DNA from: Nitrospirota bacterium
GTDB taxonomy: Bacteria; Nitrospirota; Thermodesulfovibrionia; Thermodesulfovibrionales; JdFR-85
Assembly (NCBI GenBank): GCA_015492515.1
Contig: WGEZ01000110.1
Span: 1-55,110, forward strand
Direction of reading: 5' to 3'
DNA length: 55,110 nucleotides
Shown piece after piece: positions 7,647 to 31,115 of the stretch. Below the pieces are notes generated by a model, which was given only the letters and a program-made list of their open reading frames with translations, made no database searches and was not told the DNA's origin. Positions within the stretch are counted from its first letter, which is position 1. Each line of letters starts with the position of its first letter. A program made the position numbers and the translations under genes.

Positions 7647-8270
7647 TCAACCCCTCCTCGCGAACTCTCCAAACCCCTTCAGCACCTTGAGGCCGAGGTG
7701 CTGGCTCTTTTCGGGATGAAACTGTGTGGCCACTATATTCTCCTTCCAGACGAGGGAGGTGAACTCCACCCCGTACTCGGTGGTGCCTGAGATCACCCCC
7801 TCCTCGGCGGGATCGACATAGTAGGAATGTACGAAGTAGAAGTAGCTGCCGTCCTCTATGCCCTCGAACACGGGCGGCCTCTTCCTGAACCTGACCGTGT
7901 TCCAGCCCATGTGGGGTATCTTCAGCTCAGACCTGGGGAACCTCACGACCCTCCCCTTGATCACATCGAGCCCCCTGCTGTGGCCGAACTCCTCGGACTC
8001 GCTGAAGAGTATCTGGAGGCCGAGGCAGATACCGAGGTAGGGCTTTCCGGACCGGATCGCCCTCAGGAGCGGTTCGATCAGCCCGAGGCCCTCGAGGTTC
8101 CTCATACAGTCACGGAACGCCCCCACACCGGGAAGTACGACCGCCGGAGCGTCCTCCACGTCGGAGGCACTTGAGGTCACCCTCGCATCGACCCCGACCT
8201 TGAGAAACCCCTTCTCCACGCTCCGGAGGTTGCCCATCCCGTAGTCAACGATGGCTATCGGCCCTCTCAC
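7647..8270 (-). CDS. hisH: Imidazole glycerol phosphate synthase, glutamine amidotransferase subunit
   Basis: IVDYGMGNLRSV, GICLGLQIL (catalytic Cys) and QFHPEKS are present. No other his genes are adjacent. Confidence 0.85.
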   Translation of the reverse strand: MRGPIAIVDYGMGNLRSVEKGFLKVGVDARVTSSASDVEDAPAVVLPGVGAFRDCMRNLEGLGLIEPLLRAIRSGKPYLGICLGLQILFSESEEFGHSRGLDVIKGRVVRFPRSELKIPHMGWNTVRFRKRPPVFEGIEDGSYFYFVHSYYVDPAEEGVISGTTEYGVEFTSLVWKENIVATQFHPEKSQHLGLKVLKGFGEFARRG

Positions 8271-8454
8271 CTCTCCCCCCTGATGTTGTGGACCCCTTCA
8301 AAGGGCACAGAGACCCTGAAGAGACCTTCCTCGCCCCTTGACCCTGCAGAGAACCTCCGCGTGCATGCTGAGCGGGGCGTCCTATTATGACACAACCGTT
8401 GAAGGAGGCTCAACTGCGGCGGCATCCGGCCCCTTTTGGGGTATAATCAAGAGG

Positions 8455-10824
8455 ATGAAGAGAGACCGTGCCATACTCCCCGTCGTCCTCATCGCCTCGC
8501 TCTGCAGCCTCTCATACGAGTTGAGCCTCGTGAGGGTCTTCTCCGTCTCGCTCTGGTACCACTTCGCCTTCATGGTGATAAGCATCGCCATGCTCGGCAT
8601 CGGAGCGAGCGGGACGTTGCTGGCGATCAGGCCGGGGCTCAGGGAGGACCGATACATTCCCCTGCACTGCCTGATGCTCGGCCTGAGCATCCCCGTCAGC
8701 TACCTGCTGACGAACAGCCTCCCCTTCGATCCCGCGAGACTCGCCTGGGACAGGGTCCAGCTCCTCTACATAAGCCTCTACTACCTACTGCTCTCCCTCC
8801 CCTTCCTCTTCTTCGGCCTCATCGTCTCCACCGCCCTCTCCACCATGGAGGGACGGACGGGTTACATCTACGGCGCGGACCTGACCGGTGCAGCCCTGGG
8901 CTCGCTCCTCACCCTCCTCCTCCTTCACACCGGAGGGCCCGAGAGGGTGGTCTTCATCCTCTCGGCGGTCTCGGCCTTCCCGCTCCTGTTTCACGGGAGG
9001 TGGAGGATGAAGACCGCCTCAGCCGCGCTCATCCTCGCCAACATCCTGATCCTCTCACTGCAGCCCCGGTTCATCACCCCCAGGATATCCCCCTACAAAC
9101 CCCTCCAGGTGGCACTGAGATACCCCGGCGCCGTACTGCTGAAGACCTACTACAGCCCCTATGCCAGGGTGGACATCTTCAGGAGCCCCGCCGTCAGGTA
9201 TGCACCGGGGTTGAGCCTCCGGTACCTCGAAGACCTCCCGGAGCAGACCGGCATCTCCGTCGATGCCGGCGATATCTACGCCGTCACCGACGACAGTGAC
9301 CCCGGCAGACTCGCCTTCCTCAGATACCTCCCCTCCTCCCTCCCCTACGAGCTCTCCAGGAAGGAGGACGTCCTCATACTCGATGCGAAGGGCGGGCTCG
9401 ATGTGCTGAAGGCCCGCTACTACGGTGCGCGCAACATCTACACGGTGGAGTCAAACCCCCTCGTGGTCCGCTCCGTCAGGGACTACTCCCGGAGGCTCAC
9501 CCATCACCTCTATGCCGAAAACACATGGACCGGGCTCGGAAGGAGCTGGCTCGCCTCCGGCGACAGAAGCTTCGACCTGATAGAGATATCCGTGATGGGC
9601 TCGATGCCCTCGGGTTCCTTCGGCTTCTCCGAGGATTACAGGTTCACCGTGGAGGCCTTCAGCAGCTACATCCAGCACCTGAAGCCCGGGGGGATGCTCT
9701 CGATAAACCTCTTCATCATCCCTCCGCCGAGGACGGAGCTCCGGCTGATCGACACGATCAGGGAGGCCCTGAGGGAAGAGGGCGTGGAGGACCCCGGCAG
9801 CCGTGTGGCGGCCGTCAGGAGCTGGGGAAGCATCACCATCGTCGTCAAGAACTCGCCGCTGACCGAGGGGGAGATCGAGCTGATCAGGGCCTTCGCCAGG
9901 GAGAGGAGGTTCGATCTTGTGTACTACCCCGGCATCAGGGAGGACGAAACCAACGTATATATCAAGATGCCCACCGGCGGATACGCCGATGCGTTCAGGA
10001 GGCTGCTGCTGGACCCTGAGACACGGGCACGGTTCGTCAGGGAGTATGTGTTCGACATCTCCCCGGTCCGTGACGAGAACCCCTTCTTCCACTACCACCT
10101 GAAGCTCGGAAGGATCGGAGAGATCTACGCCGTGATGGGTGAGAAGTGGCAGTACTTCCTCGAGGAGGGCTATCTGCTGCCGGTGATATTCCTGCAGGTC
10201 CTCTTCATCGGACTGCTGCTCGTCCTCCTGCCCGCGATGCAGGCGAGGGGAGGGGCCTCGGGCGGGGCCGGGACCCTCCGTAGCCTCTCCTACTTCGCCC
10301 TCCTCGGGGTGGGGTTCATGTTCATCGAGATATCCTTCATCCAGCGGATGATCCTTCCGCTGGAGAACCCTCCCTATGCAGTGGCTGCCGTGGTCTTCTC
10401 CATACTGATCGGCTCAGGCATCGGCAGCGCGCTGTCGCAGCGGTTCGAAAGGCTCAGGAGGCCGCCCATCGTGCTCGCCCTCGGCATCGTGATCCTTGCC
10501 TACAGCCTCACGCTCCGCCCCCTTACCGACGCCGTCCTGGGCCGTCCCATGGGGATGAAGCTCCTCTTCACCTTCTTCGTCCTGCTGCCCCCCGGACTCC
10601 TCATGGGCATACCCTTCCCCCTCGGGCTCTCCCTGCTCACCAGGGACAACCCCCGACTCGTCCCCTGGGCGTGGGCCGTGAACGGCTGCTTCTCCGTCCT
10701 TGCCCCCATACTGGCCGTGATGTTCGCCGTGGCCGCCGGGTTCAGGACGGTCATGATCTCCGGAGCGATGATCTACCTCCTGGCCTTCCTCTCCCTGCCC
10801 AAGAAGACGTATCCGCCCTCTTAA
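8455..10824 (+). CDS. Polytopic membrane protein with a central spermidine synthase-like (class I methyltransferase fold) domain
   Basis: Multiple N- and C-terminal hydrophobic helices flank a soluble block (DVLILDAKGGLDV...VESNPLVV...GGMLSINL). The start is set at the ATG at 8455, after AAGAGGA. Confidence 0.65.
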   Translation: MKRDRAILPVVLIASLCSLSYELSLVRVFSVSLWYHFAFMVISIAMLGIGASGTLLAIRPGLREDRYIPLHCLMLGLSIPVSYLLTNSLPFDPARLAWDRVQLLYISLYYLLLSLPFLFFGLIVSTALSTMEGRTGYIYGADLTGAALGSLLTLLLLHTGGPERVVFILSAVSAFPLLFHGRWRMKTASAALILANILILSLQPRFITPRISPYKPLQVALRYPGAVLLKTYYSPYARVDIFRSPAVRYAPGLSLRYLEDLPEQTGISVDAGDIYAVTDDSDPGRLAFLRYLPSSLPYELSRKEDVLILDAKGGLDVLKARYYGARNIYTVESNPLVVRSVRDYSRRLTHHLYAENTWTGLGRSWLASGDRSFDLIEISVMGSMPSGSFGFSEDYRFTVEAFSSYIQHLKPGGMLSINLFIIPPPRTELRLIDTIREALREEGVEDPGSRVAAVRSWGSITIVVKNSPLTEGEIELIRAFARERRFDLVYYPGIREDETNVYIKMPTGGYADAFRRLLLDPETRARFVREYVFDISPVRDENPFFHYHLKLGRIGEIYAVMGEKWQYFLEEGYLLPVIFLQVLFIGLLLVLLPAMQARGGASGGAGTLRSLSYFALLGVGFMFIEISFIQRMILPLENPPYAVAAVVFSILIGSGIGSALSQRFERLRRPPIVLALGIVILAYSLTLRPLTDAVLGRPMGMKLLFTFFVLLPPGLLMGIPFPLGLSLLTRDNPRLVPWAWAVNGCFSVLAPILAVMFAVAAGFRTVMISGAMIYLLAFLSLPKKTYPPS

Positions 10825-10937
10825 GGCGGTCGCAGGGGCAATCCTTCCGAACTCTATACCGCAGCATCTTCTCCCGCGGGTCATGATCAGAGGACTTGCC
10901 GCCCCCGGAGCAACAAACCCGGACCTCGGTGAAGATG

Positions 10938-10966
10938 TGGCAACGCCGCGTCCGTTCCTTTATAAT
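10938..10966 (+). promoter_or_regulatory. Candidate nhaA promoter: TGGCAA-17-TATAAT
   Basis: A consensus -10 TATAAT at 10961-10966 lies 8 nt before the ATG at 10975. No SD is present. The -35 is weak. Confidence 0.35.
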
Positions 10967-10974
10967 TAACTATC

Positions 10975-12354
10975 ATGAAGCTCTCTATCAGAAGGCTCGT
11001 GCCCGAGAGGAGGGAGGTCACACCCCATCTGATCCTCCCATTTCATCGTTTCTTCAAAAACGAGGCGTCGAGCAGCATCCTCCTCATCCTGGCCGCAGCG
11101 GTGGCCATTGCGTGGGCCAACTCACCGGTCCGGGAGACCTATCACCATTTCTGGGAGACCCCTCTTTCGGTCAGCCTTGGAGAGCTCAGCATCAGATTGA
11201 GCCTCAGGGAATGGATAAACGAGGCGGTAATGTGCGTCTTCTTCTTCGTGGTGGGCCTCGAGATAAAGAGGGAGGTCCTTGTGGGAGAGTTGTCCACAAG
11301 AAAGAAGGCCCTCCTGCCCGTCAGTGCAGCGGTGGGTGGCATGATGGTCCCTGCACTCATCTACTTCTCTCTGAACCTTGGCAGGGAAACCTCCGGAGGC
11401 TGGGGGATACCTATGGCCACAGACATCGCCTTTGCCCTGGGAGTACTCTATATCCTCGGGCAGAGGGTGCCGGCAGGGCTCAAGGTCTTTCTCTCCGCCT
11501 TTGCCATCGCCGACGACATGGGTGCGGTCCTGGTGATAGCCCTCTTCTATACCAGAGGGATAGCCGTGGATTATCTCCTCCTCAGCATACTCATACTCAT
11601 CGTCATCGCGATTGCCAGTTACTTCTGGATCAGGAGCACCCTGTTTTATGCATTGATGGCCCTTCTGCTCTGGTTCGCGGTCCTGGGAGCCGGCATCCAT
11701 TCCACCGTGGCCGGCATACTGGTGGCCCTGTTTATCCCCGCGAGGGGCAGGTACAATACGGACAGATTCCTTGAAGAGGTTGGTTACTATCTGAGTAGAT
11801 TTCAATGCCCCCCTCGGGGATGTGGTGAATCCATCCTCCTGAATCAGGAACACCTGAATTCGGTGCAGTCGATAGAGATGGCCTGCCATCATGTGGAGAC
11901 ACCCCTCCAGAGGCTCGAACACGCCCTCCATCCATGGGTGGCCTTCCTGGTGATACCCCTCTTTGCGCTTGCCAACGGAGGGGTCTCCCTGGAAGGGGTC
12001 GGTCTGACCCGTCTCTTCGACTCAAGGGTGGAGACGGGCATAATACTGGGGCTTCTCCTCGGCAAACCGATCGGTATAACCCTCTCTACGTGGCTTGCCG
12101 TAAAGACAGGCATGTCGGAGCTTCCCTACAGGGTGAGATGGGGCCATATACTCGGGGTTTCGGTGCTGGGCGGGATCGGCTTTACCATGTCTCTCTTCAT
12201 CGCCACCCTTTCTTTCCAGGAACAACGGCTTGTAGAGGAGGCGAAGTTCGGTATCCTTACAGCCTCTCTGCTGTCAGGGATAACGGGCATCTCGATCCTC
12301 TATCTCCTCTCAAGAAGAAACGAAGGACCCGGTCATGATCCAGGGCCGTCCTGA
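10975..12354 (+). CDS. nhaA: Na+/H+ antiporter NhaA
   Basis: FFKNEASSSILLILAAAVAIAWANSP, FFFVVGLEIKRE, IPMATDIAFALG and PLFALANGGV are present. Confidence 0.9.
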   Translation: MKLSIRRLVPERREVTPHLILPFHRFFKNEASSSILLILAAAVAIAWANSPVRETYHHFWETPLSVSLGELSIRLSLREWINEAVMCVFFFVVGLEIKREVLVGELSTRKKALLPVSAAVGGMMVPALIYFSLNLGRETSGGWGIPMATDIAFALGVLYILGQRVPAGLKVFLSAFAIADDMGAVLVIALFYTRGIAVDYLLLSILILIVIAIASYFWIRSTLFYALMALLLWFAVLGAGIHSTVAGILVALFIPARGRYNTDRFLEEVGYYLSRFQCPPRGCGESILLNQEHLNSVQSIEMACHHVETPLQRLEHALHPWVAFLVIPLFALANGGVSLEGVGLTRLFDSRVETGIILGLLLGKPIGITLSTWLAVKTGMSELPYRVRWGHILGVSVLGGIGFTMSLFIATLSFQEQRLVEEAKFGILTASLLSGITGISILYLLSRRNEGPGHDPGPS

Positions 12355-15612: not shown

Positions 15613-16458
15613 ATGAGGAAGGGACACGCGGAGACCGATGTGGAGGCGGCCGACCTGAGGGAGGAGATAACACTCCTGAGGCAGAGGCTCACCGAGCTCA
15701 CCCCTCCCCTCGAGGCCCTCCTCAGGAGGAGGGGGTTCAGCATCTTCAAGAAGGAGCCCTCGGAAGACCTCATCATCCCTGCAGAGAGGCATCTCGACTC
15801 CTACTACGAGACGATGAAGCGGTACTCCTTCAGGCTCTTCCTGAGGGAGGTGATAAAGCACCAGGAGGGGTTCACCCCCGGGGAGGTGACCACCTACGCC
15901 ACGGAGGAGATCACCGGAGAGTACATCGACTACCTCCTCGAGACAGGGTTGCTGGAGCGGGTCTCCGGCGGGTACAGGCTGAGGAAGAGGCCCGTCAAGA
16001 GCTTCGGCGAGACCCTCGAGTGGTTCGTTGCGGAGGTGTTGAAGAGGGAGTTCAGGATGGAGACCATCTGGGGCATCAAGTTCCGGGGCAGGAGGGTCGG
16101 CGGCGACTATGACCTGATCGCCAAGCTGGACAGCGGACTCCTGTACATCGAGGTGAAGTCCTCACCCCCGAAACAGATATACGACACCGAGATAAGCGCC
16201 TTCTGGTCGAGGGTCCAGGACCTGTGTCCGGAGATGGCGGTCTTCCTGATGGATACCCATCTCAGGATGAAGGACAAGCTCGTGCCGATGTTCGAGGAGG
16301 AGCTGAGCAAGAGGTTCGAGCGCCCTCCCGCTGTGGAGAGGCTGAAGGCGGAACTCTTCACCATCGACGGCAGGGTCTTCATAATCAACTCGAAACCCTC
16401 GATCGAGGGCAACATCGAGACACTCTTGAGCTACCATCTGAGAAGGAGGTGCAGATGA
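15613..16458 (+). CDS. Hypothetical protein: N-terminal coiled segment, wHTH-like region, then a PD-(D/E)xK (Hjc/restriction-endonuclease-like) core
   Basis: VGGDYDLIAKLDSGLLYIEVKSS matches the D...(D/E)xK nuclease signature, as in Hjc (xDLVA...IEVK). The upstream segment YIDYLLETGLLERVSGGYRLRK looks like a winged helix. Confidence 0.6.
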   Translation: MRKGHAETDVEAADLREEITLLRQRLTELTPPLEALLRRRGFSIFKKEPSEDLIIPAERHLDSYYETMKRYSFRLFLREVIKHQEGFTPGEVTTYATEEITGEYIDYLLETGLLERVSGGYRLRKRPVKSFGETLEWFVAEVLKREFRMETIWGIKFRGRRVGGDYDLIAKLDSGLLYIEVKSSPPKQIYDTEISAFWSRVQDLCPEMAVFLMDTHLRMKDKLVPMFEEELSKRFERPPAVERLKAELFTIDGRVFIINSKPSIEGNIETLLSYHLRRRCR

Positions 16459-25992: not shown

Positions 25993-26017
25993 GGCAGGTT
26001 GAGCTCCTCAACCTGCC
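25993..26017. terminator. Perfect 10-bp hairpin between convergent genes (possible bidirectional terminator)
   Basis: GGCAGGTTGA-gctcc-TCAACCTGCC. The right arm overlaps the last codons of the nitroreductase gene. There is no clear U-tract. Confidence 0.45.
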
Positions 26018-26583
26018 AACACTATATCGTCGAGCCTCCTCTTCGGGACGTGGTGGACACCCTCGGCGTCCCTCCAGTACCTGATGCTCTCACCCTCTGA
26101 GACCTCCTCGATCACCACCTTCTCCTTCGGCCTCCCCAGTGCGATGACCAGGAGTATCTCGTACCTCTCGGGGATATCGAGCAGCTCCCTGAGCCTCCTC
26201 CTGTTCACCGTACCGATGATACAGCCGCCGAGGCCCTTCTCCACCGCACCAAGGAGGATGCTCTGGGCTGCGATACCGTGGTCGCACCCGAAGTTCCTGC
26301 TCACGCTGGTGTCACCGAGGATGACGATGTAGGCGGAGGGTCTCTCACCCTCCGGGGGGCCGGGCCAGTCCTTCAGATAACCGGCCCAGCCAAGGCATGA
26401 GAAGATCCTGCCGTTGGTCTCGGGGGAGTTCGAGAGGATGTAGCGGAGGGGCTGGAGGTTGCCTGCCGACGCCGAGAGCCTCGCCAGGTTGACGAGCCCC
26501 CTCAGGGTCTCCCCGTCGATGGGGACGTCCTCGTGGAAACGCCTGTAGCTCCGGTTCTTCCTGATCAGTTCCTCTATCATCAC
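26008..26583 (-). CDS. Nitroreductase family protein
   Basis: RSYRRF, ASAGNLQPLRY and DHGIAAQSILLGA are typical of the nitroreductase fold. Confidence 0.85.
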   Translation of the reverse strand: MMIEELIRKNRSYRRFHEDVPIDGETLRGLVNLARLSASAGNLQPLRYILSNSPETNGRIFSCLGWAGYLKDWPGPPEGERPSAYIVILGDTSVSRNFGCDHGIAAQSILLGAVEKGLGGCIIGTVNRRRLRELLDIPERYEILLVIALGRPKEKVVIEEVSEGESIRYWRDAEGVHHVPKRRLDDIVLAG

Positions 26584-26614: not shown

Positions 26615-28777
26615 TCAACGCGGCTTTTTTCCTTCCACCTGCCTCTTCAGGTCCTCCGCAAGGGCCTTCCCTATGGTGGGCACGGCCGCCAGCTCTCCGG
26701 CCGTCGCCTCCCTGATCTCCTTGAGCCCCCTGAATCCTGCATCGAAGAGCCTCCTCGCCCTCACCCTCCCGATCCCCCGGAGGGTAACGAGCTGCAGGAG
26801 CTCCTCCCTCACTCCGTAGACGACCCTCGTCCTGAGGAGGGAGACGGCCCTCACCGCCTCCCTCAGCCTGAAGACCCTGCCGATCTCTGCCGCTGAGTAG
26901 AGGAGCCAGTCGGAGAGCTCCACGAGGGTCCGGAGATCACCGGGTCCGATCCCGAAGCGGCTCACCATCCTCTCCTCCGGCGTCTCCTCTATCCACTGAA
27001 GGAGCAACGACGCCGTCTTCATCTCCGCCAGCAGCTCCTCCGAGGGGTACCGCTCCTCCTCCGGAAGGAGCAGCTCCCCTGCGTGGGCGTAGAAGAGCTC
27101 GATCATCTCGTCGTAATCACCCTTCCTGAGGGAGAGCACCATCATGTCCGGCGTATGGGCTATCATCTGGAAGATCGGCAGCGGCCCGCTCCCGTCGAAG
27201 CGGTGGAGGGCGTCCCTCAGCACCACGGCGGTGAGGGGATCGATGTACAGCTCCGAGACCCTCCGGCCGAACCTCGTGGCCGCCAGGGCCGCTCCCTCCC
27301 GGACCATCATCCCCTCGGCCTCGAGAAACCCCGTTATCTCCTCCGCTATGGAGGCGAGCCGTCCGGCTCCGCTCTGGAAGGCGAAGAAGGTCTTCTCCAG
27401 GAACCCTGCGAGCTCGGCATGGGTCGTCGTGAAGAGTCCTGCCACGGATGCGAGCACGTGGGTCCTGAGGGCGGGCTCGCTGCCGAGTCTGGACTCTATC
27501 CTCTCCAGCTCACCGGTGATGTACTTCCTGAAGAGGAACTCCTCATCCCTCTTGCTCCGTGCGACGATCACTGCCTCTCCGTACTCATCGAGCCCCGGCC
27601 TTCCGGCCCTCCCGGACATCTGTTTTATCTCGATGGCCGCCAGGGGGTGGATGCCGAGACCTGTCTCGTACCTCCACCAGTCCCTGATGACCACCCTCCT
27701 TGATGGGAGGTTCAGCCCCATGGCGAGGGTGGTGGTGGCGGCTATCAGCTTTATGCCGCCGGCCCTGAAGGCATCCTCTATGAGCCTCCTCTGGGCATGG
27801 TTGATACCCGCATGATGGAAGGCCACACCGCAGGCCACGCACTCGGCGAGCCTCCTGCAGATCCGTGTCGGTTCAGCGGTGACAGCCAGGACCCTTCCGG
27901 AGAGCTCCCTGAGGGAAAGCCTCTCCGCCTCTGAGAGGAGGCCTGTCACGTACGGAGAGGCGTTCCTGGCGACCGTCTCCGTTGATTTCCGCGTGTTCAC
28001 GAATACGAGCGCCTGCCCTCCGTCCCTGATGGTCTCGAGCGCGAGGTTCACCGCATCCCAGCGGCTCTCCCTCGGCACCCACCTGACGGTGCCGTCGTTG
28101 AAGATCTCTGCACCGTTGTAGAAGACCCCCTCCCTGAGGGGCACCGGCCTCCAGTCCGCCTCCACGAGCCTGGCGTTGAGCCACCCCGCGATCTCCACAG
28201 CATTCGGTATCGTGGCGCTCAGGGCTATCAGCCTGGGCTCCGGACTCATCAGCCTGAGGCGGGTGAGAACGACCTCGAGGGTCGGCCCCCTGTGAGGGTC
28301 TCCGAGGAGGTGTATCTCGTCGGCGATCACGAGGCCCACGTCCCTCAGCCAGGGGGCCCTGTGCCTGACGAGCGAGTCCATCTTCTCGTTGGTGGATATG
28401 ATCAGGTCAGCCCGTTGAAGCCACGGCTCCGCGCTGTCGTAGTCACCCGTGCTCTGGATCACCCTCACGCCGGCGGCCCTGTACTTCCTCGTGAACTCAT
28501 CGTACTTCTCCCTTGCCAGCGCCCTGAGGGGCACGAGGTATATCACCTTCCCTCCCCCCTCGAGGAAGACCTTCAGCATCGCCAGCTCCGCAATGAGGGT
28601 CTTCCCCGAGGCTGTGGGGGCAGCCACCACGAAGGGGGCCTCTCCGCTCAGGAGGCCCGCCTCAACGGCCATAGCCTGAGGGGGATAGAGGTCCCTCACC
28701 CCTGTGGAGGCAAGGACCTCCACGAGTCGCCTCGACCCTCCATATGCCTCCAGTACCTCAATATCCACGGCCTGCAT
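26615..28777 (-). CDS. hel308: Hel308/Ski2-like DExH DNA helicase (archaeal-type architecture)
   Basis: LYPPQAMAV, Walker A AAPTASGKT and DEIH (ADEIHLLGD) are present. Motif VI is QMSGRAGRPG. A ratchet-like central region is followed by a C-terminal HhH (LRGIGRVRARRLFDAGF). Confidence 0.85.
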   Translation of the reverse strand: MQAVDIEVLEAYGGSRRLVEVLASTGVRDLYPPQAMAVEAGLLSGEAPFVVAAPTASGKTLIAELAMLKVFLEGGGKVIYLVPLRALAREKYDEFTRKYRAAGVRVIQSTGDYDSAEPWLQRADLIISTNEKMDSLVRHRAPWLRDVGLVIADEIHLLGDPHRGPTLEVVLTRLRLMSPEPRLIALSATIPNAVEIAGWLNARLVEADWRPVPLREGVFYNGAEIFNDGTVRWVPRESRWDAVNLALETIRDGGQALVFVNTRKSTETVARNASPYVTGLLSEAERLSLRELSGRVLAVTAEPTRICRRLAECVACGVAFHHAGINHAQRRLIEDAFRAGGIKLIAATTTLAMGLNLPSRRVVIRDWWRYETGLGIHPLAAIEIKQMSGRAGRPGLDEYGEAVIVARSKRDEEFLFRKYITGELERIESRLGSEPALRTHVLASVAGLFTTTHAELAGFLEKTFFAFQSGAGRLASIAEEITGFLEAEGMMVREGAALAATRFGRRVSELYIDPLTAVVLRDALHRFDGSGPLPIFQMIAHTPDMMVLSLRKGDYDEMIELFYAHAGELLLPEEERYPSEELLAEMKTASLLLQWIEETPEERMVSRFGIGPGDLRTLVELSDWLLYSAAEIGRVFRLREAVRAVSLLRTRVVYGVREELLQLVTLRGIGRVRARRLFDAGFRGLKEIREATAGELAAVPTIGKALAEDLKRQVEGKKPR

Positions 28778-29042
28778 CCTCTATGTGCTGAAGATCACGA
28801 AACGGCGGGTATCGGGGCTGCAGATGGACCCGCCCCCCGGAACCCCTCTGAAAAGCCCTCCATGGGCTCGTCAACACCCCCTTTACGTTCCCTGCCCCCT
28901 CAGGGGCCTCGAAGAGCAGGCAGACCCCTCTCCCGGAGATCATCCCTGAGAAGGGGGCAGAGGCGAGCCTCTGGATGGAGAGCCCTGAGAGGAACCACCT
29001 GAACATTCTTGAAGTTTAGCAGAGGAGTCCCCACCGTTACAA

Positions 29043-29072
29043 CCGGGGTCAGGTCTCAACATTTGACATTCC
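29043..29072. repeat. Left inverted repeat CCGGGGTCAGGTCTCAACATTTGACATTCC
   Basis: It matches the reverse complement of 30012-30041 at 30 of 30 positions. Confidence 0.95.
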
Positions 29073-29097
29073 GGACCGTTTCTGTTAAACTCTCTCC

Positions 29098-30003
29098 ATG
29101 GCCAGACCTCTGAGGCTCTCCTTCGAGAACGCTGTCTATCACATAACCGCAAGGGGCAACCGGAAGGAGGAGATCTTCTACAGTGACGACGACAGGCGCT
29201 CCTTTCTGGAGAAGATGGAGGAGACGTGGGGGAAATACTCCATAGTATGTTACGCCTACTGTCTGATGAGCAACCATTACCACCTCTTTATAAAGACCCC
29301 TCTTGCCAATATATCAGAAGCGATGCATTACCTGAACGCCTCTTACGCAAACTGGTTCAGGGTAAGGCACGGGATCGTCGGGGCGGTGTTTCAGGGCAGA
29401 TACAGATCGATCATTGTTGATGAAGACAGATACGCTGTTCAGCTCTCCGCCTATATCCATGCAAATCCCGTGCGGGCGGGTATGGTGAAGGACCCTCTGG
29501 AGTATCCCTGGAGCAGCTATCCTGAGTATATGGGCAGGAGGAATCCCCTGGCGAGGCTCGAGACGGGCTTCATCCTGGGACAGTTTGACGATGACCTCCG
29601 GAGGGCACGGAGGAGGTACAGGGCCTACGTCATCAGAAATCTCTATGCAAAGGACCCGGTTAAGGAGGCATACAAGGGCGTCGCCCTCGGTGGGGAGGGG
29701 TTCATAGAATCGATAAAGGAAAGGATGCGATCCATTGGGCGGAGCAGAGAGATCGCCGCGACAAGGGATGCAGAGACGTATACGGCGGAGGAGATCATCC
29801 AGCAGGTGATGGAGCGGGCCTCGGTCAGCCGCGATGAGATATTCGACCGCAGACGTGGGAACATCTATAGACAAATGACGCTCTATCTGCTGAAGAGATA
29901 CACGCCGATGAGCCTGAGGGAGATAGGGGAGATGTTCGGGATGGATTATGCCGCTGTGTCTCAGGCCTGCAGGAGGTATGAGGAGAGGATAAGAGGGGGA
30001 TGA
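29098..30003 (+). CDS. HUH/Y1 tyrosine transposase (IS200-like, REP-associated RAYT-like) with a C-terminal DnaA-C-like HTH
   Basis: HUH motif SNHYHLFIK, catalytic Tyr motif LSAYIHANPVRAG, and a C-terminal HTH (LLKRYTPMSLREIGEMFGMDYAAVSQACRR) are present. Confidence 0.8.
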   Translation: MARPLRLSFENAVYHITARGNRKEEIFYSDDDRRSFLEKMEETWGKYSIVCYAYCLMSNHYHLFIKTPLANISEAMHYLNASYANWFRVRHGIVGAVFQGRYRSIIVDEDRYAVQLSAYIHANPVRAGMVKDPLEYPWSSYPEYMGRRNPLARLETGFILGQFDDDLRRARRRYRAYVIRNLYAKDPVKEAYKGVALGGEGFIESIKERMRSIGRSREIAATRDAETYTAEEIIQQVMERASVSRDEIFDRRRGNIYRQMTLYLLKRYTPMSLREIGEMFGMDYAAVSQACRRYEERIRGG

Positions 30004-30011
30004 GGTCGGGA

Positions 30012-30041
30012 GGAATGTCAAATGTTGAGACCTGACCCCGG
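30012..30041. repeat. Right inverted repeat GGAATGTCAAATGTTGAGACCTGACCCCGG
   Basis: It is the exact reverse complement of 29043-29072 and ends one base before the ATG at 30042. Confidence 0.95.
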
Positions 30042-31115
30042 ATGAGGACCGGTACGGCGATACTGCCGCTGCACCACGGGAGGGCGCCGAGGTGGCTCTT
30101 CGAGAGGATGACGGCCCTCTCGAGGGAGATCACCGCAGCCATCGTGGCCGAGTTCGGCCAGAGGGCGTTCCTGGAGAGGCTCTCCGATCCCTGCTGGTTC
30201 CAGGCCCTGGGCTGTGCCCTCGGCTTCGACTGGCACTCAAGCGGTCTCACCACGACGGTGACCGGTGCGCTGAAGGAAGGACTGAAGGGCATGGAGGGAG
30301 AGCTCGGCCTCTTCATCGCCGGAGGCAAGGGCGGAGCATCGAGAAAGACGCCGGAAGAGATAAGGATGTATGCCGACAGGCACACCGTGGACCCCGCCCC
30401 ACTGATCCATGCAAGCAGGATGGCCGCCAAGGTGGACAACTCTGCCGTGCAGGACGGGTATCAGCTCTACCATCACGTCTTCGTCTTCACGGACCGGGGA
30501 CAGTGGGCCGTTATTCAGCAGGGTATGAACGAACAGAAGAGATCGGCGAGACGCTACCACTGGCTGGGAGAGAACGTGGCGGACTTCGTGGTGGAGCCGC
30601 ACACCGCTGTCTGCTGCGATGAGAGAGGCGCGGTCATCAACATGGTCGCCTCCGAGAGCGAAGGGGCGAGGCGGATATCCACCGCCCTGTCAAGGGAGAG
30701 GCCGGAGAAGGTGCTTAAGGAGATGACGAGGATCAGGGAGATAGAGCTCTCCAGGAGGCACCACATAACGGCTGCAGACATAGATCCGGCGAGGCTGCAC
30801 CGTACACTGACAAAGACGTACGAGAGACAGCCCGAGGGCTTCGAGGAGCTCCTCGGCATCAGAGGGGTGGGACCCAAGACGGTAAGGGCGCTGAGCCTGC
30901 TGTCGGAGATCATATACGGAAGGCCTCCGAGTTATCGGGACCCTGCAAGGTTCAGCTTCGCCCACGGCGGAAAGGACGGTACACCCTTCCCGGTCGACCG
31001 GGAGACCTACGACAGGACGATCGAGGTCATGAGGAGGGCCATCAGGACGGCGAAGGTGGGCCACAGGGATAGAATGGAGGCCCTGAAGAGGCTGGCGAGG
31101 TTCTACGGAGCTTGA
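30042..31115 (+). CDS. DUF763-like protein with a helix-hairpin-helix motif
   Basis: The N-terminus AILPLHHGRAPRWLFERM matches my recollection of the DUF763 family. HhH motif LLGIRGVGPKTVRAL is present. An in-frame TGA at 30033-30035 rules out an upstream start. Confidence 0.55.
   Translation: MRTGTAILPLHHGRAPRWLFERMTALSREITAAIVAEFGQRAFLERLSDPCWFQALGCALGFDWHSSGLTTTVTGALKEGLKGMEGELGLFIAGGKGGASRKTPEEIRMYADRHTVDPAPLIHASRMAAKVDNSAVQDGYQLYHHVFVFTDRGQWAVIQQGMNEQKRSARRYHWLGENVADFVVEPHTAVCCDERGAVINMVASESEGARRISTALSRERPEKVLKEMTRIREIELSRRHHITAADIDPARLHRTLTKTYERQPEGFEELLGIRGVGPKTVRALSLLSEIIYGRPPSYRDPARFSFAHGGKDGTPFPVDRETYDRTIEVMRRAIRTAKVGHRDRMEALKRLARFYGA

Follow-up and report, generated by a model that had tools for sequence, protein, structure and literature searches.

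Archaeal Hel308/Hjm helicases, known from structures such as 2ZJ2, 2P6R and 2VA8, share a five-domain layout in which motifs I, II and VI of superfamily 2 (SF2) and motif IVa (FHHAG) are accompanied by a ratchet domain and by a C-terminal helix-hairpin-helix (HhH) with an RVRAR signature. Motif IVa (F/YHHAGL) is given as specific to Hel308/HELQ (PMC10484726), and Hel308 has been stated to be 'absent in bacteria' (PMC12278908). Two further families are relevant here. PF05559 (DUF763), found in archaea and bacteria, lacks an assigned function and a solved structure, and the Protein Data Bank (PDB) contains no relative of its fold. The RAYT/TnpA_REP transposases are encoded by single-copy genes with a Y1 HUH domain, flanked by two inverted repeats that are also dispersed in the genome. 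Representatives of all three are found side by side in a 55,110 nt stretch of a Nitrospirota genome (contig WGEZ01000110.1), referred to below as the window, where a Hel308/Hjm gene and a DUF763 gene point away from each other with a RAYT-like cassette between them. The preliminary description of this locus saw in the two genes a jointly acquired, co-regulated repair module. Our comparisons indicate that the locus probably combines three independent genetic units, neighbours by chance in one lineage, and not a two-gene repair module.

Linkage of Hel308 and DUF763 is not conserved. Among 40 relatives, DUF763 was found in 18 and Hel308 in four, and the three genomes which carry both have them always on different contigs. 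A tblastn search with all window proteins against the relatives' loci showed that neither gene has the other one or the cassette nearby. Six Hel308 loci in all were inspected, with flanks of 7-10 kb. DUF763 was absent from the three contigs with close Hel308 homologues, where the neighbours are Peptidase_M54 and radical SAM genes, GGDEF and ABC transporter genes, and phosphoribosyltransferase and HicAB genes, and it was equally absent from the three relatives' loci, with flanks of roughly 9-10 kb. When loci were searched starting from DUF763, Hel308 was near it at none of 80 bacterial reference loci representing at least 15 phyla (flanks up to 10 kb), and at one of 80 metagenomic loci retrieved by a query built from aligned DUF763 sequences that are AT-rich and probably archaeal. 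Altogether, one of 160 DUF763 loci elsewhere has Hel308 nearby, in a convergent arrangement. In each of the ten other genomes with both genes across all groups studied, six of them Brocadiia, the two lie on separate contigs or are separated by 390 kb.

Local synteny with the window was detected for only one of the relatives' loci compared (G030), in which the block recJ-secF-secD-HD-yajC is located ~4.6 kb from DUF763. Other genes lie there between this block and DUF763, and Hel308 is on a separate contig. Since the syntenic segment carries different genes and Hel308 is elsewhere, adjacency of Hel308 and DUF763 is a derived feature of the window lineage.

Trees of the two proteins are discordant as well. 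In the Hel308 tree (midpoint root), a Brocadia clade with a support of 1.0 is nested among Nitrospirota sequences and, given this root, points therefore to transfer between the two phyla. The DUF763 tree, rooted with Thermoplasmatota, places bacterial genes in one tight clade with subclades largely by phylum, and most of the sequence diversity of the family falls outside this clade. The window DUF763 is inside the Nitrospirota subclade and thus looks inherited, not recently imported; DUF763 of Brocadia is far from that subclade. Hel308, with its patchy distribution and Brocadiaceae nested in Nitrospirota, and DUF763, which sorts largely by phylum, have different evolutionary histories that are not congruent with co-transfer. 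The archaeal flavour earlier ascribed to both proteins holds for the helicase, for which archaeal models and structures are the best matches, but not specifically for DUF763, which is pan-bacterial and in the window belongs to a Nitrospirota subclade.

Furthermore, each gene is found without the other. At E <= 1e-60, no Hel308 was detected anywhere in 50 of the reference genomes with DUF763, all from other phyla, and the same query did recover Hel308 in genomes known to carry one. On the evidence of these 50 genomes, DUF763 does not depend on Hel308; in the window it would be a separate gene whose history follows that of Nitrospirota and which has no need of the helicase. Of 22 genomes of the window's own family, 13 carry DUF763 and not one carries Hel308. 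DUF763 is missing in four of the 15 genomes with Hel308, three of which (G026, G210 and G224) are each listed as 100% complete and one of which (G333) has no completeness figure.

Several observations have to be set against independence of the two genes. The 201 Nitrospirota genomes include five with both genes, three with Hel308 only, 11 with DUF763 only and 182 with neither, which means that DUF763 is present in 5/8 genomes with Hel308 and in 11/193 others (naive Fisher p = 8e-5). In Brocadiia, the corresponding values are 6/7 and 33/114 (p = 0.004), and 11 of 15 Hel308 genomes carry DUF763 overall. In addition, a 246-kb metagenome contig (L127, positions 8001-11198) contains DUF763 and Hel308 tail-to-tail and 10 nt apart, the latter being 42% identical to the window helicase; apart from the window, no further adjacency was found. 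Within the order and the family examined below, odds ratios remain at ~4-5, compatible with a loose functional tie that they do not establish. The genome-wide association asked for in the earlier proposal is thus present at the level of phylum and class, but it is not significant at lower ranks: in Nitrospirota a single order accounts for most occurrences of both genes, and within it p = 0.16, and the seven Brocadiia genomes with Hel308 all belong to one family, in which DUF763 occurs in 29 of 47 genomes and p = 0.23. The single adjacency in L127 was judged to be roughly at chance level.

The enrichment of DUF763 in Hel308 genomes and the L127 pair also belong to the arguments for a horizontally acquired, divergently co-regulated module acting on stalled forks or in repair, into which the HUH cassette was inserted later. 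Other points in its favour are the HhH elements in both proteins, the autonomy of the cassette, which makes an insertion possible, and the position of DUF763 next to other repair genes, including an Lhr helicase, in other lineages. With the cassette removed in silico, the helicase and DUF763 starts are indeed divergent and 262 nt apart. The phrase that an HUH enzyme has landed between them is reasonable as far as the independence of the cassette is concerned, but no empty site shows that the two genes were once directly divergent. Apart from the convergent L127 pair, their adjacency is unique among ~170 loci examined, and such a module is further at odds with the absence of Hel308 from all 50 DUF763 genomes of other phyla and of DUF763 from four Hel308 genomes, with the loss of significance within order and family and with the discordant trees. 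We consider it improbable and, as far as physical linkage goes, largely refuted. Three independent units remain the preferred explanation; what was taken for a module is for the most part owed to chance in gene order, and the locus by itself is ordinary. Positions of the features, which confirm Hel308, DUF763 and the cassette where they had been reported, are listed in Table 1.

Table 1. Position, strand and supporting evidence of the features at the Hel308-DUF763 locus of the window.
Feature	Position	Strand	Evidence
Nitroreductase-family gene	26008..26583	-	Pfam Nitroreductase 70.5 bits
Hel308/Hjm-family SF2 DNA helicase gene, 720 amino acids (aa)	26615..28777	-	Pfam, NCBIfam, PDB alignments
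Spacer, 262 nt, from helicase start codon to left cassette repeat	28778..29039	.	Direct sequence reading
Left 33-nt inverted repeat, REP-like, with TTGACA -35-like hexamer	29040..29072	+	Repeat-pair search
RAYT-like Y1 (HUH) transposase with DnaA C-terminal helix-turn-helix (HTH), 301 aa	29098..30003	+	Pfam Y1_Tnp, Bac_DnaA_C
Right 33-nt inverted repeat; outer end overlaps DUF763 ATG	30012..30044	-	Repeat-pair search, sequence reading
DUF763 (PF05559) gene, 357 aa	30042..31115	+	Pfam 457 bits

The helicase is a true orthologue of Hel308/Hjm. Its open reading frame (ORF) contains the motifs AAPTASGKT, DEIH, FHHAGI, QMSGRAGRPG and GIGRVRARRLFDAGF, and Pfam models identify DEAD (109 bits), Helicase_C (46 bits), the archaeal ratchet domain Helicase_dom4_arc (PF21280, 114.5 bits, residues 534-655) and a C-terminal HHH_5 (PF14520, 34 bits, residues 662-712). 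Two RecA-like domains, a winged helix, the ratchet and the C-terminal HhH make up the five domains, and this full layout, proposed earlier from the motifs, is borne out by full-length alignments to archaeal structures. Residues 16-709 are colinear with Pyrococcus furiosus Hjm (2zj2, 524 bits) and Archaeoglobus fulgidus Hel308 (2p6r, 509 bits), and full-length alignments were also obtained with 9b15 and with Sulfolobus solfataricus Hel308 (2va8). In both 2zj2 and 2p6r, SF2 motifs I (GKT), II (DExH) and VI (QxxGRAGR) align with those of the helicase and its AFHHAGI (motif IVa) corresponds to AFHHAGL, while the domain-5 segment GIGRVRARRLF aligns to HIGRVRARKLY of the A. fulgidus protein. The length is likewise similar to that of archaeal members, and the N-terminal extension that distinguishes metazoan HELQ is lacking. 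The next PDB matches, ASCC3, Brr2, Pol theta and Ski2, comprise the helicase core only.

In NCBIfam, the helicase matches four archaeal Hel308 equivalog models far better than any other. The euryarchaeal model NF002654 scores 820.5 bits, just under its cut-off of 887, and NF001308 and NF040935 reach 665 and 581 bits against cut-offs of 1216 and 1200, respectively. The near miss on NF002654 is expected because the helicase represents a divergent bacterial branch. The protein adds a bacterial member to a known family and, by homology, would most likely act on its own as a 3'-to-5' DNA helicase/annealase, with stalled forks and intermediates of recombination as substrates.

According to PMC12278908, HamB, the helicase of the Hachiman system, resembles Hel308 in function. 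The core of the window helicase is matched by PADLOC HamB models with up to 184 bits and by the HamB structure 8vx9 with 110 bits, which could suggest an anti-phage defence sensor, HamB-like or similar, with defence partners as neighbours. These matches cover the RecA core only, whereas Hel308 models extend over the full length at 500-820 bits. In Hachiman, HamB adjoins the nuclease HamA (DUF1837), whereas no neighbour of the window helicase matches HamA or any other PADLOC family. Moreover, the genes around the helicase are housekeeping ones (ileS, lspA, nitroreductase and larE), and the guanine-cytosine (GC) content of its region is typical of the genome. A defence system at this locus is very unlikely, and the helicase is treated below as a Hel308 orthologue. 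As a candidate Hel308 partner we also considered an Hjc-like PD-(D/E)xK gene at 15613-16458 (281 aa, no Pfam match) and rejected it, since 32 of 41 relatives carry it irrespective of Hel308.

Hel308 is rare in bacteria, as previously supposed, and patchy in Nitrospirota and Brocadiaceae: it was found in eight of 201 Nitrospirota and seven of 121 Brocadiia genomes, and in none of the 50 from other phyla. A large protein database contains many homologues with 58-69% identity to the window copy. Nitrospirota and Brocadia/Brocadiaceae account for all those with a named source, whose annotation goes no further than 'DEAD/DEAH box helicase' or 'ATP-dependent DNA helicase'. The names of homologues assign the window's genome to Nitrospirota/Thermodesulfovibrionales. 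The Nitrospirota/Brocadiaceae clade is a counter-example to the published description of Hel308 as 'absent in bacteria' (PMC12278908). Because this clade most resembles the euryarchaeal model NF002654, it probably goes back to an old archaeal transfer that was followed by spread between bacteria; the archaeal origin is deduced from hidden Markov model (HMM) scores and similarity to PDB structures, and not from a rooted tree. Full-length bacterial orthologues offer systems in which the helicase can be studied without its archaeal and eukaryotic partners RPA, PCNA and Hjc.

In 14 control genomes, NF002654 exceeded its cut-off in two, and matches at E <= 1e-50 were obtained in Haloferax, Methanosarcina, Methanocaldococcus, Sulfolobus and Synechococcus elongatus. 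The last of these matches suggests that cyanobacteria may hold another Hel308/Ski2-like branch. Among the bacterial copies, Hel308 of G026 (C33:76390-78533) seems to be split into two overlapping frames of 543 and 300 aa, and that of G293 (C3:3361388-3362221) is a 278-aa N-terminal piece. Both are possible pseudogenes, consistent with ongoing loss.

The cassette between the two genes resembles RAYT/TnpA_REP units in its Y1 HUH domain, whose sequence shows HYH and YIHANP, and in its pair of inverted repeats. Its gene is matched by Y1_Tnp (50 bits) and Bac_DnaA_C (48.6 bits). It differs from described members by the fusion to a DnaA C-terminal HTH and by a score of 70.4 bits for NF047646 (REP_Tyr_transpos), below the cut-off of 80. 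One copy of the gene is present in this genome. The flanking 33-nt repeats are 97% complementary, and the repeat sequence GGGGTCAGGTCTCAACATTTGACAT has ~7 near-identical genomic copies in addition to palindromic variants. A number of only ~7-12 genomic copies is a further difference from described members. The palindromic variant GGTCAGGTCTCAACAGGCTGTTGAGACCTGACC forms perfect hairpins in the same genome, at C114:50937-50967, C146:14217-14250 and C56:13169. GC content of the cassette is 54%, compared with 62-65% in its flanks.

Distribution of the Y1/DnaA_C family is patchy, with several copies in some relatives. The closest orthologues, 72-73% identical, are found in one genus (g5), with the same flanking repeats at the same spacing. 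This genus has neither DUF763 nor Hel308; in its loci L205, L206, L207 and L209 the cassette resides in other contexts, and the 25-nt repeat cores are almost identical. Since orthologues keep the same repeats elsewhere, in relatives with neither gene, the cassette is an autonomous REP/RAYT-like unit.

A consensus scan located a strong sigma-70-like promoter site, TTGACA-17-TAAACT, at 29063-29091, with 10/12 consensus positions and an upstream TG. Its TTGACA is part of the left repeat and the site ends 7 nt before the Y1 ATG, so that it could give rise to a near-leaderless Y1 mRNA. The scan revealed no other promoter-like or terminator-like site ahead of DUF763 and none in the spacer next to the helicase. 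Since no other site precedes DUF763 and its ATG overlaps the right repeat, DUF763 may be transcribed from the cassette. The cassette would then bring its own promoter-like site, and DUF763 would now probably be read through from it and not from a region shared with the helicase.

From the same features it could be argued that the cassette and DUF763 form a meaningful pair, a single transcription unit with a 38-nt gap between its genes, in which DUF763 is controlled by the cassette promoter. The promoter-like site just upstream of the Y1 gene, the uninterrupted path to DUF763 and the right repeat abutting its start codon are all compatible with this proposal. On the other side, these signals come from consensus scans, and the Y1/DnaA_C gene adjoins DUF763 at no other locus examined. 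The pair is a possibility that we hold with some doubt. Because the pairing was seen nowhere else, coupling of this kind would be a local regulatory accident and not a functional partnership.

The DUF763 assignment was upheld by the HMM search: PF05559 matches with 457.2 bits against a cut-off of 35.5, over profile positions 1-319 of 319. Nothing sets the window member apart from the rest of the family. All family-invariant residues are present, e.g. D63, W64, S66-G68, G94-K96, D132, R170-H173 and G309-D312. The invariant polar ones, D63, W64, S66/S67, K96, D132, Q137/D138, Y143, R170-H173, D300 and K311/D312, suggest an enzyme. Its AlphaFold2 model is alpha/beta, with a mean predicted local distance difference test (pLDDT) value of 84 and a predicted template modelling (TM) score of 0.84. 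The model is otherwise confident but reaches its lowest pLDDT, 50-58, in the invariant segment D300-P301...H-G-G-K-D-G-x-P (protein residues 301-320), which contains the invariant loop 307-316 and may serve as a mobile loop for catalysis or for the substrate.

An HhH in DUF763, noted earlier from the motif LLGIRGVGPKTVRAL, is probable. In the isolated C-terminal part the motif remains sub-threshold in Pfam (HHH_5 E = 0.0017, HHH E = 0.0028), and the model predicts it with pLDDT 93-98 at residues 267-292, as a helix at 267-271, a hairpin and a helix at 278-292. In an hhalign comparison with endonuclease III (Nth), the hairpin 'P..FE.L...GVG.KT' alone aligns, over 26 columns and with a probability of 25%. 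A PDB sequence search with DUF763 gave no relative, and the structural search proposed earlier, done with Foldseek, yielded no PDB match with E below 0.9 (best E ~1, TM at most 0.15). We also considered an HhH-GPD glycosylase, in which a Gly/Pro loop and a catalytic Asp come after the HhH in an all-helical fold of two domains. This candidate was rejected on account of the alpha/beta and not all-helical fold and of the lack of an HhH-GPD match in Pfam and of a glycosylase match in Foldseek; the invariant G293...D300-P301 following the HhH is a resemblance only. In the literature, a function is nowhere assigned to DUF763/PF05559/COG1415, and the family is mentioned in a 2005 domain census alone. 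DUF763 remains an orphan.

The family includes >8000 matching proteins. In reference genomes it is present in Dehalococcoidia, Actinomycetota, Acidobacteriota, Gemmatimonadota, WOR-3, Thermodesulfobacteriota, Firmicutes, Omnitrophota, Brocadia and others, with bacterial copies 54-65% identical to that of the window. Conservation of 55-65% identity across bacterial phyla in a family without a structural relative makes this orphan conspicuous. To describe its surroundings, 275 immediate neighbours were assessed by ORF clustering and by Pfam/NCBIfam tallies. The neighbours are heterogeneous, and the recurrent ones form small sets: PCMT (5), PD-(D/E)xK (5), DCD/dUTPase (4) and PolX (3). EndoQ did not recur in the loci sampled. 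The share of DNA metabolism, ~5%, is not clearly above our rough guess for genomes generally, and a role in DNA repair is for this reason a lead only.

Individual loci show tighter couplings of DUF763 to DNA-metabolism genes on its own strand. The order PCMT-DUF763-PolX-Nth was found in Actinomycetota (L045, L063), in L063 with the DUF763 stop overlapping the PolX start, and DUF763-PolX in a single-cell genome of Omnitrophota (L057); DUF763 of these loci is ~58-60% identical to that of the window and translationally coupled to DNA-repair genes. In five loci of Dehalococcoidia, probably one lineage, a Cas4-like PD-(D/E)xK nuclease is coupled to DUF763. On the same strand as DUF763, the 8-oxoguanine glycosylase Ogg is located 38 nt upstream in L125 (7229-9050) and a family-B DNA polymerase (PolB) 20 nt upstream in L155 (2470-5959). 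A dCTP deaminase/dUTPase adjoins DUF763 in four loci. On a Thermoplasmatota contig (L124, 8001-14363), a 1713-aa Lhr-type helicase with DEAD, Helicase_C, WHD_Lhr and DEAD_assoc domains follows DUF763 after 120 nt on the same strand. Unlike the PolX-Nth operons, the window locus has neither PolX nor Nth next to DUF763, and its divergent Hel308, with a mobile cassette between, does not recur.

In other lineages DUF763 is tightly coupled to PolX-Nth, Ogg, PolB, the PD-(D/E)xK nuclease and Lhr, and on this basis we tentatively suggest that it might be an HhH-guided, DNA-binding repair enzyme, a proposal about which we remain more sceptical than convinced. Though scattered, these links to genes of base excision and replication mean that a role in DNA repair can be tested. 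A more specific version would see in DUF763 a repair enzyme of undescribed fold that acts in the pathways of Hel308/Lhr, PolX, Nth and Ogg and has a loose but real partnership with Hel308. The excess in 11 of 15 genomes and the two adjacencies, in the window and in L127, would then reflect function and not chance or shared ancestry. We regard this version as unlikely.

An Rfam scan of the region gave no match. A phage origin of the three genes was rejected, the sole PHROG match being that of the helicase, to a helicase family, with none for the other two genes. The nitroreductase gene is missing wherever Hel308 loci of relatives and homologues were compared and is not a conserved partner. In the window it is located 31 nt downstream of the helicase gene on the same strand, and the two genes may be co-transcribed.

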